Positions 45,836-48,619 of a DNA stretch of 64,000 bases are shown here, piece by piece (positions within the stretch are counted from its first letter, which is position 1; each line of letters opens with the position of its first letter). A program made the translations under genes and the position numbers. The stretch is taken from contig CAMMVE010000002.1 of NCBI GenBank assembly GCA_946500265.1, forward strand, positions 758 through 64,757, written 5' to 3'. The notes under the pieces were generated by a model that was not told the origin of the DNA, made no database searches, and was given only the letters and a program-made list of their open reading frames with translations. Source of the DNA: an uncultured Clostridium sp. (GTDB lineage Bacteria > Bacillota > Clostridia > TANB77 > CAG-508).

Positions 45836-47038
45836 CTACCTTTGTTCTAAAATTGCCTCTTTATTTGTTAGTGTTTCCCAGCGTTTTACAATAACATCAC
45901 AGTATTTTGGATCCAGTTCCATCGTATAGCAATTTCTATTTAATTGTTCTGCGGAAATAATAGTGCTGCCACTACCTCCAAATAAATCCAATATGATGTC
46001 ACCTTCTTTACTCGAATTTTTCATTAATTTAGCAATAAGGTCTATAGGCTTCATTGTAGGGTGTAATGTGCTTTGCTTTGGTCTGTCAAATTCTAATATT
46101 GTGCTTTGTGTTCTATCATTCACAAAATAATGAGCTTTTCCTTCTTTCCAACCATACAATATAGGTTCGTGTTGCCATTGGTAGTCTTGTCTTCCCATTA
46201 CAAAACAATCCTTTTTCCAAATTAAACATTCCGCTAATTTAAAACCTGCATCTTTGAAAGCTTTTCTAAAATTAATTCCTTCAGTATCTGCATGAAATAC
46301 ATAAATTGCTGCTCCTTCTTTTGTAACAACATACATATTTTCAAATACTTTTCGTAAAAATTCATAAAACTTATTGTCATCCATATTATCATTTTTTATT
46401 TTTAATGCTTCAGGTGTCTTTCCTACATAATCCACATTATAAGGTGGATCTGTAAGAAGCATGTCTGCGTCTTGATTATTCATAAGACGCATAACATCGT
46501 CTTTCTGCGTGCTATCTCCACACATTAATCTATGATTACCTAACAACCATATATCTCCCGGTTTTGTAATTGGTTCTTCTATTTCTTCATATGCAGAATC
46601 AATATCAAAATTATCTTCTTTAGTTCCATTAATATCACTTAATATCTCATCAACTTCGTCAAAATCAAAACCAGTTAAATTTAAATCAAATTCTTCTAAT
46701 TTTAATTCTTGTAATAATGCTTCCAGTTTGTCTTCATCCCAGTCACCTTGTATTTTATTTAAAGCAATATTCAATGCTTTTTCATTATTCTTATCTAAAT
46801 CTACTACAATACATTCTACTTCCGTTATTCCTAAATCTTTTAAAACTTTTAATCTTTGATGACCACCGATTACAGTCATATCTTTGTTTATTACTAATGG
46901 ACTCACGAACCCAAACTTAACTATACTATTTTTTATTTTTATATATTCTGCATCATCTGTTTTCAAATCTTTTCTTGGATTATAAGTAGCTGGTATTAAT
47001 TTATTAATATCTATTATTTGTATGTTCATCTTTATCAC
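45836..47038 (-). CDS. ParB-N-domain fused to an N6-adenine/N4-cytosine DNA methyltransferase
   Basis: N-terminal ParB-like region (ATYNPRKDL...VIGGHQRLKVLKDLG). The methylase has the DPPY motif (LLTDPPYNV) and an AdoMet motif (DLFGGSGSTIISAEQLNR). Confidence 0.8.
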   Translation of the reverse strand: MIKMNIQIIDINKLIPATYNPRKDLKTDDAEYIKIKNSIVKFGFVSPLVINKDMTVIGGHQRLKVLKDLGITEVECIVVDLDKNNEKALNIALNKIQGDWDEDKLEALLQELKLEEFDLNLTGFDFDEVDEILSDINGTKEDNFDIDSAYEEIEEPITKPGDIWLLGNHRLMCGDSTQKDDVMRLMNNQDADMLLTDPPYNVDYVGKTPEALKIKNDNMDDNKFYEFLRKVFENMYVVTKEGAAIYVFHADTEGINFRKAFKDAGFKLAECLIWKKDCFVMGRQDYQWQHEPILYGWKEGKAHYFVNDRTQSTILEFDRPKQSTLHPTMKPIDLIAKLMKNSSKEGDIILDLFGGSGSTIISAEQLNRNCYTMELDPKYCDVIVKRWETLTNKEAILEQR

Positions 47039-48074
47039 CTCTTTGCATTCTATCTAATAATTGTATTTGAATTTGTTGTGCGATTTTTTTCATCATAATT
47101 GGTGGTACACTCATCCCACACACATATTGCACGTTCATTCCCATAAAATCATAGTCTTGTGGAAATGTTTGTATTGTTATTATGTCTTTATCACTTGCAT
47201 ATCCAGGTACATCATATCGTAATGGTGGACTTCCTCCTGCTGCTATTGTTGCTGGTGTTCTATCATCTTTTAAATATTGTGTATTAAAACAACTTATTTT
47301 TCCTTTTTCTGTTCTTTTTATTGTGTCACTAAGTTTTACATCTCTTGCTATTCTTTTTTTCCATCTTTCATAGGTTAATGTGTCTTTTTTTAATGGTTTA
47401 TAATTGATATCTTTTATTTCTTCATATTTTATTGGTTTTTCATTGAAATCTAGTTTTATCTTTGAAATATTAATATTTTTGTTAATTGCAATAAAAAATA
47501 ATCTTTCTCTCCTTTGAGGTACTCCCATTCTTGCTGCATTTAATAAAAACAATTGTGTGTTGTATCCAATTTCATTTAATTTTTTAATTATCAAATTCAC
47601 ATATCCTTTTGCATTACCTTGCATTAATCCTTTTACATTTTCTGCAACAATTATCTTTGGTTTTAATATTTTTGCTAAATCTATAAATTCAAAAAACAAG
47701 TCATCTAATACTTGACTTGTTTGGCCTTCTCTAAATTTTTTATTTTTACCCCAGTTTTTTTCTCTTTCTCCACATAATGAAAATGTACTACAAGGAGGAC
47801 TTCCATCTAAAATATCTAAATTATATAATTCTTTTGGAAACTCTTTTAACTTATTCATTTCTTGAATTCCCATACAATAATTATATTTTGGATGATTATT
47901 TTTAACATAAATTTCGTTAATCTTTTTATCAATTTCACAATTTCCAATAACTTCATACCCTGCTAGTTTATATCCCATTGTTGAACCGCCACCACAAGAA
48001 AAACATGAAAAAACTTTATAATTATTCTTTGGTATATTATTTATATCTTTTAAATACCAATTATACTCTTTCAT
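47004..48074 (-). CDS. DNA (cytosine-5)-methyltransferase
   Basis: Motif I FSCFSCGGGSTMGY, motif IV GSPPCSTFS, motif VI AENVKGL, motif VIII PQRRERLFF. Confidence 0.85.
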   Translation of the reverse strand: MKEYNWYLKDINNIPKNNYKVFSCFSCGGGSTMGYKLAGYEVIGNCEIDKKINEIYVKNNHPKYNYCMGIQEMNKLKEFPKELYNLDILDGSPPCSTFSLCGEREKNWGKNKKFREGQTSQVLDDLFFEFIDLAKILKPKIIVAENVKGLMQGNAKGYVNLIIKKLNEIGYNTQLFLLNAARMGVPQRRERLFFIAINKNINISKIKLDFNEKPIKYEEIKDINYKPLKKDTLTYERWKKRIARDVKLSDTIKRTEKGKISCFNTQYLKDDRTPATIAAGGSPPLRYDVPGYASDKDIITIQTFPQDYDFMGMNVQYVCGMSVPPIMMKKIAQQIQIQLLDRMQRGDKDEHTNNRY

Positions 48075-48619
48075 ATCATTTCACTTCCTGTTTGCTCATT
48101 CATATCAAATACAAAACCACATTTTGGACATTTACATTGGAATTTTTCATCATTGAAATTATCTAAATCTATTTCTGTATTTTCATTCATTATTTCTTCT
48201 GTTTCTTTTATTAGCTTATTAATTTCTTTTTCATCAAAACCTGTAATTAATAAATCAATATTATTTTCATCTAACTCATTAAATATGCTTTCTAATTTTT
48301 GATAATCCCATTCTCCAGATATTTTATTAAGTGCTATATTTAATAATTTTTCTTTGTTTTTATCAAAGTTAACTACTATACAATCTATTTCTTCATATCC
48401 TAAGTCTTTTAGAACTTTAATCCTTTGATGTCCGCTTATTACTGTTTTGTCTGCATTAATAATAATTGGTGCAACATATCCAAATTCAATAATGCTATTT
48501 TTTATTTTTTGATATTCTTTGTCTTTTTCGTTTAGTTCTTTTCTGGGATTGTATGTTGCTATTTTCAAATCCCCTATTTTTTGTTTTTTTAATTCCATTT
48601 TTCTTTCCTTCTTTCTCAA
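48071..48619 (-). CDS. stand-alone ParB-N-domain protein with a C-terminal zinc ribbon (likely start MELKKQ at 48598)
   Basis: IATYNPRKELNEKDKEYQKIKNSIIEFGYVAPIIINADKTVISGHQRIKVLKDLGYEEIDCIVV... is closely paralogous to the N-terminus of 45836..47038. The C-terminus has CKCPKCG. There is an ATGA overlap with the C5-methylase start. Confidence 0.7.
   Translation of the reverse strand: MRKKERKMELKKQKIGDLKIATYNPRKELNEKDKEYQKIKNSIIEFGYVAPIIINADKTVISGHQRIKVLKDLGYEEIDCIVVNFDKNKEKLLNIALNKISGEWDYQKLESIFNELDENNIDLLITGFDEKEINKLIKETEEIMNENTEIDLDNFNDEKFQCKCPKCGFVFDMNEQTGSEMI

Follow-up and report, generated by a model that had tools for sequence, protein, structure and literature searches.

Why should a prophage operon carry the N-terminal domain of ParB (ParB-N) twice, once as a small free-standing protein and once fused to a DNA methylase? 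The question is raised by three consecutive genes on the minus strand of the window, the whole 64,000-nucleotide stretch of contig CAMMVE010000002.1 (uncultured Clostridium sp., assembly GCA_946500265.1) that was analysed. The gene of the free ParB-N protein runs into that of a C5 cytosine DNA methylase, and this is followed by a fusion of ParB-N with an N6/N4-type methylase. We propose that the C5 methylase has the free ParB-N protein as a dedicated accessory subunit, which serves it in trans as the fused module would serve its methylase in cis, and assign this reading a probability of about 0.58. The features of the three genes are:

48071..48598, minus strand: free ParB-N gene, 175 amino acids (phrog_620, E 1e-49; PF02195)
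48314..48598, minus strand: ParB/Srx nucleotide-binding fold of the free protein, residues 1-95
48104..48142, minus strand: C-terminal knuckle F-Q-C-K-C-P-K-C-G-F-V-F-D, residues 153-165 of the free ParB-N protein
47004..48074, minus strand: C5 cytosine DNA methylase, 356 amino acids (PF00145)
45836-47029, minus strand: ParB-N/N6_N4 methylase fusion, 397 amino acids (PF02195 and PF01555)
46565..47029, minus strand: ParB-N module of the fusion, residues 1-155, paralogous to the free protein
45836..46564, minus strand: N6/N4 beta-class methylase domain of the fusion (TDPPY ... DLFGGSGST) and stop codon (phrog_498, E 2e-173)

The stop codon TGA of the free ParB-N gene (48073-48071) and the ATG of the C5 gene (48074-48072) overlap in ATGA, as an earlier note on this DNA had stated and as can be read in the sequence. 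Translation of the free ParB-N gene likely starts at the ATG at 48598, which is preceded by GAAGGAAAG and yields the 175-residue form seen on 17 contigs; the TTG at 48619, from which 182 residues would be read, is a less likely start. For the fusion, the likely start is the ATG at 47029, which is used by gene callers on related contigs and creates a 26-nt overlap with the C5 gene. An open reading frame (ORF) of 70 amino acids, rich in CxxC motifs and lysine (48495-48707, minus strand), runs into the first part of the free ParB-N gene in a different frame and is probably a chance ORF in A-rich sequence.

Are the two ParB-N copies really versions of the same module? The free protein and the N-terminus of the fusion share 78 of 145 residues (54%) in an ungapped BLASTP alignment (E 2e-49), and both score above the Pfam gathering cut-off for ParB_N (26.3 bits), the free copy with 30.4 and the fused copy with 28.5 bits. 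The earlier note had recognized this paralogy, but had confined it to the first ~95 residues; local hhalign comparison of the free-family and fused-family profiles aligns residues 1-154 of the former with residues 1-155 of the latter, so that the shared part amounts to about 150 residues. It consists of the ParB/Srx fold (about residues 1-95) and a helical linker with a conserved WD...TGF...E motif, and ends exactly where the free protein enters its tail and the fusion enters its methylase domain.

The fold of the free protein was modelled with AlphaFold2 (AF2), giving predicted local distance difference test (pLDDT) values of 85-93 for residues 1-134 and below 50 for residues 135-175. Foldseek matched this model to the N-domains of pNOB8 ParB-N, Noc, ParB-CDP/CTPgS and KorB, each with a probability of 1.0 and E-values from 1.8e-7 to 1e-4. 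The motifs YNPR (Box I-like) and GHQR (Box II-like) are invariant in the free and fused copies and align with QPRK and GERR of Spo0J in a profile search of PDB sequences; within the second, R59 aligns with Arg80 of Bacillus subtilis ParB, an arginine needed for CTP binding. In Box III, Glu-Asn is replaced by Asn-Lys (LNIALNK), and judged from this exchange nucleotide hydrolysis by the free protein is doubtful. The stretch TGFDEKEI aligns with the first helix of the ParB helix-turn-helix (HTH) domain (4umk), and there the homology stops: neither the HTH recognition helix nor the C-terminal dimerisation domain was found in the alignment or the AF2 model, and no parA gene lies in the neighbourhood. 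Since recognition helix, dimerisation domain and ParA context are all missing, the label 'partition protein' is functionally wrong. What is common with the ParB, Noc and KorB CTPase clamps is the N-domain fold with the Box I- and Box II-like motifs including the key arginine, whereas the ParA-binding motif and the parA/parS setting are absent along with the two domains just named.

How firmly the free ParB-N gene is tied to the C5 gene was followed in three surveys, one starting from the free ParB-N protein, one with the C5 alignment against IMG/VR, and one with the same C5 query against one genome per GTDB species. In the first, every member of the free ParB-N family (47-100% identity) is immediately followed by a C5 methylase. 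The pair also occurs without the ParB-N6 fusion, with the order ParB-N, C5, TerS in loci L007-L015. In IMG/VR, a free ParB-N gene encoding 158-204 amino acids precedes the C5 gene in 83 of 83 loci with upstream sequence, its end lying between about -21 and +13 nt from the C5 start. The fusion stands directly downstream of the pair, as in the window, in 20 of these 83 loci, some of them with only 50-57% C5 identity. Among the GTDB species genomes, 64 of 77 loci contain the pair and 14 the downstream fusion too; the hosts are Clostridia, Bacillus, Enterococcus, Paenibacillus, Brevibacillus, Selenomonadaceae, Prevotella, Oxalobacter, Elusimicrobia and candidate phyla. The description of the locus as one design in a fused and a split version is thus borne out, since the pair is kept with or without the fusion and the stacked form recurs in both collections. 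Ten of the 83 IMG/VR loci carry two or three tandem free ParB-N genes upstream of the C5 gene (L135, L136, L153, L158, L159, L166, L177, L178, L181 and L188); in these arrays the methylase-abutting copy ends in CPxCGF and the other copies in CPxCG(H/Y/K/Q).

In cultured phages, the pair is represented by gp46 and gp47 of Bacillus phage vB_BtS_BMBtp14. The Erwinia jumbo phage pEa_SNUABM_30 encodes a ParB-like protein of 236 amino acids, 27% identical to that of the window and ending in NCTCPRCGFKFEG, 2 nt before an intein-interrupted C5 methylase of the same subfamily. The intein (Hint/Intein_splicing) sits right after the catalytic Pro-Cys motif of this enzyme (L191, 3641-5770). Two copies of the pair are found in Bacillus spizizenii TU-B-10 (NC_016047.1), at 182712-189719 (L220) and 243189-250196 (L221). 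Across 76 orthologues, the more similar two ParB-N proteins are, the more similar are their C5 partners (correlation of pairwise identities, r = 0.83, 2850 pairs), with ParB-N evolving faster (mean pairwise identity 41%, against 58% for C5); taken as sequence data, this shows co-inheritance and is no proof of contact.

The C5 methylase itself appears intact. It matches PF00145 with 153 bits over positions 1-323 of the 324-position profile, its AF2 model reaches a pLDDT of 87.8, and motifs I (VFSCFSCGGGS), IV (GSPPCS), VI (ENV), VIII (QRRER) and X (GMSVPP) are all invariant in the alignment. The partnered enzymes share an N-terminal extension of 18 residues, modelled by AF2 as an ordered helix on the enzyme, in which W6 and L8 are present in 76 of 76 sequences and D10 and N17 are near-invariant. 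The motif I of this subfamily, VFSCFSCGGGS, is unusual. C5 enzymes that stand behind ParB-N6 fusions lack the extension and begin directly with a conventional motif I. In the fused methylase, TDPPYN (motif IV) precedes DLFGGSGST (motif I), which is the beta-class order, and PF01555 is matched with 114 bits; the methylase types named earlier were correct for both enzymes. The fusion is 56% identical to the methylase of Bacillus phage vB_BtS_B83, and the gene at 45836-47029 is a plain member of the ParB-N6/N4 fusions. No cognate restriction endonuclease was found: the neighbours are a late regulator and TerS, and PADLOC run on the three proteins returned methylase models only.

In the free protein, the place of the methylase domain is taken by a flexible acidic linker and a single knuckle, KFQCKCPKCGFVFD. 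Among 76 distinct orthologues, with pairwise ParB-N identities down to 21%, only C157 and C160 of the tail are invariant, and position 155 is Cys or His in 56 (~74%). A second knuckle is absent from these 76 sequences, and they conserve no other Cys or His except H57 of GHQR. The ending had been called a zinc ribbon. One CPxCGF knuckle is present, and its core recurs in every C5-associated orthologue (83/83 IMG/VR loci), but a ribbon needs four ligands and the tail is a half-site only. Short terminal motifs with two or three ligands are known from the CxxC of the Rad50 zinc hook and from the CxCP and CxxC of the CD4/Lck zinc clasp. The likeness of these to the CxCPxC/CPxC ending of the free protein is a resemblance of motifs only, and the analogy suggests that a metal site of the knuckle might be completed in trans. 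Two other ideas about the tail were rejected. A fission scar of a methylase N-terminus has no support: in the global hhalign alignment CPKCG is paired with HRLxCGD at zero confidence, and the local alignment stops at residue 154. The CxxC formed by C24 and C27 in motif I of the methylase was considered as a trans partner; it is unconserved in the Erwinia orthologue and sits in the S-adenosylmethionine (SAM)-binding strand and loop. A single locus in a Selenomonadaceae metagenome-assembled genome (MAG; L256, 1274-1450) contains a mini-ORF of 58 amino acids placed between an N6/N4-type methylase and a C5 methylase, which comprises the acidic linker and a DDKFEHTCPRCGFKF knuckle and no ParB-N domain.

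Did the two copies arise in place? A neighbour-joining tree was built from 85 ParB-N domains with 60 bootstraps. The free and fused copies of the window were sisters in 0/60 of these, and the C5-associated free copies formed one clade in 0/60. A sub-clade with both window copies and TerS-adjacent fusions was recovered in 36/60, the resolution being otherwise poor; as to the number of fission or fusion events, the tree is taken to support non-monophyly (0/60) only. The 'duplicated' ParB-N of the earlier note therefore holds in the sense of two paralogous copies, and a recent duplication within this genome is rejected. Because the copies are never sisters, we regard the locus as a stack of two independently circulating cassettes, and because each cassette keeps its own ParB-N, a cognate specificity of module and enzyme can be argued.

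More distant free ParB-N proteins stand beside other types of modifying enzymes. Mom-family proteins are the neighbours in phiEf11, L079 and L084/85, and TAGT-type glycosyltransferases in L095 and Lactobacillus phage c5; Bacillus phage 022DV001 has a PAPS-reductase/methylase cluster with two ParB genes. The type of tail follows the class of the partner, CPxCGF being found with C5 enzymes (83/83) and other tails with Mom and glycosyltransferase partners. As far as sequences can tell, these proteins would share one ParB-N chassis, which bears at its C-terminus either a short tail specific for the partner class or a whole fused enzyme. Plasmids had been considered as a test of terminase independence and were dropped, since the full-length ParB-N6 fusions on 'plasmids' mostly belong to phage-plasmids or to prophages on megaplasmids.

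An experimental precedent was reported with the 5mYOX176/ParB176 system (O'Toole et al., PNAS 2026), in which a free phage ParB-like protein is required by its cognate thymine dioxygenase for activity on double-stranded DNA; proteins of the ParB176 type have no DNA-binding domain and show cognate-pair specificity with the dioxygenase (PMC13229309), which parallels the separate ParB-N of each cassette here. Both systems have a small free ParB fold that lacks a DNA-binding domain and is encoded beside a post-replicative base modifier, often near the terminase. They differ in the partner, an Fe/2-oxoglutarate dioxygenase there and a C5 methylase here, and in the C-terminus, where ParB176 has a dimerisation domain and the window protein a 13-residue CPxCGF knuckle. 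The dependence of the enzyme is experimental there, whereas here it would follow from the comparisons presented above. ParB-N6N4 methylase fusions are enriched in phages and prophages (PMC12704722), and a prophage locus in Bacillus cereus ATCC 10987 combines TerS, a ParB-methylase fusion (Bce_0392) and a C5 methylase (PMC3592412, PMC5512222). The free protein has the 150-residue module in common with such fusions, but has a tail in place of the methylase domain and a separate C5 partner. For the ParB-terminase (Tls) loci of Iyer, Aravind and co-workers (NAR 2013), a phage DNA modification linked to packaging has been predicted (cited in PMC4738411, PMC8256090); like the window, these loci have ParB and variable modifiers (methylases, TET/JBP, Mom, glycosyltransferases) beside the terminase. 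The fusion half of the locus is nothing unusual, and the split half is a variant among the known ParB-linked loci for phage DNA modification; neither a partnership of free ParB-N with a C5 enzyme nor the CPxCGF tail was found described in the open-access literature.

Taken together, the block 48598-45836 (minus strand) would represent two stacked DNA-modification cassettes at the start of the late operon, immediately ahead of the terminase genes. Each would consist of one ParB-N module and one methylase, split in the first (C5) and fused in the second (N6/N4). The free ParB-N protein would be made from the same transcript as the specialised C5 methylase, translationally coupled to it by the ATGA overlap, and would most likely aid the engagement or retention of this enzyme on duplex phage DNA, a step that is possibly nucleotide-gated. 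Replicated phage DNA could then be fully methylated, carrying 5-methylcytosine and N6-methyladenine or N4-methylcytosine, before it is packaged, and so escape host restriction. We favour an accessory subunit because the pair is conserved (83/83 and 64/77) and survives wide divergence and changes of context, and because the neighbouring gene, like genes of hundreds of phages, encodes the same ~150-residue module in one chain with a methylase. The tail that tracks the partner, with linker and knuckle kept alone in L256, argues in the same direction, as do the N-terminal extension of the partnered C5 enzymes, the correlated identities, and the precedent of a ParB-dependent dioxygenase (PMC13229309).

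Several observations speak against such a subunit or weaken the arguments for it. The 13 of 77 GTDB loci that lack the pair are those with the most distant C5 enzymes (47-52% identity; Bacteroides, Capnocytophaga, Christensenellaceae), in which the extension is kept; since this clade has no ParB-N, the C5 fold can work without it. The mini-ORF of L256 also belongs to one of the 13 loci. A fusion of ParB_N with PF00145 was not found among the 120 closest C5 homologues and ~250 surveyed loci. Any two linked genes would be expected to diverge in a correlated way. The knuckle is not exclusive to C5 partners, as the ParB protein of phiEf11, whose partner is Mom, has a CPCCG knuckle, and a ParB-like protein of Cylindrospermopsis virus (a cyanophage, L192) ends in CPECGHEW and abuts TerL with no methylase. 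In RcMeacham, a free ParB-N lies near TerS with no visible modification gene. Thousands of N6_N4 matches on conjugative plasmids comprise the methylase domain only, with no adjacent ParB gene. The B. cereus ParB-methylase fusion nicks DNA non-specifically in vitro (PMC3592412), in which case the module itself would be enzymatic. A nucleotide gate is uncertain, since nucleotide-site mutants still worked in the 5mYOX system (PMC13229309).

Two side observations concern these enzymes. In four Bacteroides loci (L262, L266, L271 and L272, at ~2421-2963), the ParB-less C5 gene is preceded by a gene for a Cys-rich protein of 178 amino acids (CPNKCPMCC...) that looks like a radical-SAM-type or Fe-S protein. 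On one contig, a protein of 516 amino acids (P0180) matches both PF00145 and PF01555, an apparent C5-N6/N4 methylase fusion without an intervening ParB-N.

In a bolder version, the free ParB-N protein would be an obligate subunit that enables the C5 methylase to track along DNA, and ParB-N a universal phage adaptor. The C-termini of two ParB-N chains would be held together by an intermolecular zinc site (CPxC with CPxC, as in the Rad50 hook) and their N-termini by nucleotide-dependent engagement of the ParB fold, which would produce a ParB-like clamp without HTH and C-terminal dimerisation domain. This clamp might carry the methylase along concatemeric DNA, so that methylation becomes processive and nearly complete before packaging. 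As an adaptor, ParB-N with exchangeable tails or fused enzymes would load C5 and N6 methylases, Mom, glycosyltransferases and dioxygenases onto DNA. We consider this version rather unlikely.

How does the proposed accessory subunit fit its place in the operon? The G+C content of the window is ~28%, and nearly all genes lie on the minus strand. Around the three genes, the following features were found:

48861-49442, minus strand: late-regulator-like gene (phrog_1558, weak matches to transcriptional activators)
48620-48860: intergenic gap of 240 nt between the phrog_1558 gene and the free ParB-N gene
48809..48837, minus strand: putative promoter-like site TTGACA-17-TATAAT, 12/12 match to the sigma-70 consensus (consensus match only)
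48706..48747, minus strand: 18-nt inverted repeat (89% complementary) followed by a T run, in the leader between promoter and ParB-N start
45066..45821, minus strand: TerS, directly downstream of the methylase block (phrog_1889, E 1e-48)
43682-45127, minus strand: TerL, fragmented
42114-43667, minus strand: SPP1-type portal

The position at the head of the late operon, as proposed in the earlier note, fits the sequence, with the 12/12 promoter and the hairpin in the gap, the phrog_1558 gene upstream and TerS downstream. Judged by its shape, the inverted repeat with T run could be an attenuator or terminator; it could likewise be an attenuator or antitermination target for the phrog_1558 protein encoded upstream. 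The same locus is present in identical or near-identical form on dozens of metagenomic contigs and in MAGs that bear the labels Clostridia, Candidatus Onthovivens and Caudoviricetes.

The TerL of the window is broken into pieces of 157, 158 and 122 amino acids that lie in three frames, and because of this break the prophage may not package DNA. A split into two pieces (~175 and 295 amino acids, in overlapping ORFs) is common to several relatives; TerL is split in L003, L005, L006, L016, L088, L017, L110 and L012, and intact (461-479 amino acids) in L007, L109 and L114. Either a defective prophage is decaying here, or the split is due to a frameshift that recurs and is possibly programmed. At 50022-50822 (minus strand), 2 kb upstream of both methylases, lies a gene for a compact SAM synthetase (MetK) homologue of 266 amino acids, which matches the N- and C-terminal parts of MetK only (PF00438; PDB MAT chains; phrog_1569). 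It may boost the SAM supply for genome methylation. A metK gene beside a ParB-methylase is also found on a Corynebacterium plasmid (H131).

This place directly before TerS, shared with many relatives that have TerS or TerS-like genes there, is also what would be expected if ParB-N were a packaging factor that acts with the terminase or at pac/cos and marks or holds DNA, the methylases merely sharing the late-operon position. The distant free copies at genome ends by the terminase (Cylindrospermopsis virus, RcMeacham) agree with this, as does the tie of ParB-terminase loci to packaging in the literature (PMC4738411, PMC8256090). However, the window has a bona fide TerS of its own, there would be no need for one packaging factor to be encoded twice in an operon, in copies diverged to 54% identity, and the tail changes with the class of the adjacent enzyme. 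The free ParB-N gene tracks C5 and not the terminase (83/83, whatever gene comes next), the pair of the Erwinia jumbo phage has no annotated terminase within 3 kb, and it is distant paralogues that adjoin the terminase: orthologues of the free protein next to TerS in phages lacking methylases were not found in our surveys. A packaging role is therefore judged unlikely. The nicking by the B. cereus ATCC 10987 fusion (PMC3592412, PMC5512222) leads to another explanation, namely that ParB-N is a nucleoside triphosphate-regulated nickase or DNase, directed at host or unmodified DNA or used in replication or packaging, from which the methylase protects the phage DNA. Several ParB/Srx proteins have been reported as DNases (PMC5512222), and the top Foldseek match is a pNOB8-type 'ParB domain protein nuclease'. 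The invariant residues, however, are those of the nucleotide-binding boxes of ParB CTPases (YNPR, GHQR) and form no recognisable nuclease centre, the module has no sequence-reading domain and no restriction endonuclease model was matched, and a site-specific methylation cannot counter a non-specific nuclease, which makes this explanation quite improbable.

That the free ParB-N gene is the first after a strong promoter-like site and a leader hairpin would suit a regulator that, like DndB, KorB or BisD, controls the expression of the methylase or late genes and not the enzyme, and ParB-fold regulators exist (PMC12704722). However, no HTH recognition helix is present: the protein can be aligned with ParB only as far as the first helix of the HTH, and the model is confident for residues 1-134 only. 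Neither the co-variation of the tail with the enzyme class nor the methylase-fused paralogue would be expected of a regulator, and we hold this role to be very improbable. The free gene could finally be inert and in decay, left behind when a ParB-N6 fusion lost the methylase part, as fusions directly followed by a C5 methylase are common (~20/65 fused loci) and the non-monophyly of the free copies (0/60) is compatible with repeated fission. Yet none of the 83 and none of the 64 loci has a broken ORF, and both the motif residues and the tail stay invariant at identities down to 21%. The C5 enzymes behind fusions belong to a different, conventional subfamily, and the tail does not significantly resemble the beginning of the methylase domain; a remnant is strongly disfavoured.

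ParB-fold proteins that do not serve segregation have become topical, with a broad survey published in 2025 and the first ParB-dependent DNA-modifying enzyme in 2026. The split pair described here is a natural separation-of-function system, since module and enzyme are placed on separate polypeptides. It spans prophages of gut Clostridia, Bacillus phages and Erwinia jumbo phages, with BMBtp14 and Bacillus spizizenii TU-B-10 as cultured and tractable carriers. For annotation, our results argue against the labels 'partition protein' and 'nuclease' for small ParB-N proteins. If the free ParB-N protein is indeed an accessory subunit of the C5 methylase, control by such subunits would no longer be confined to dioxygenases but would include the largest class of enzymes that modify DNA, and this would explain why phage methylases may under-perform in heterologous expression.

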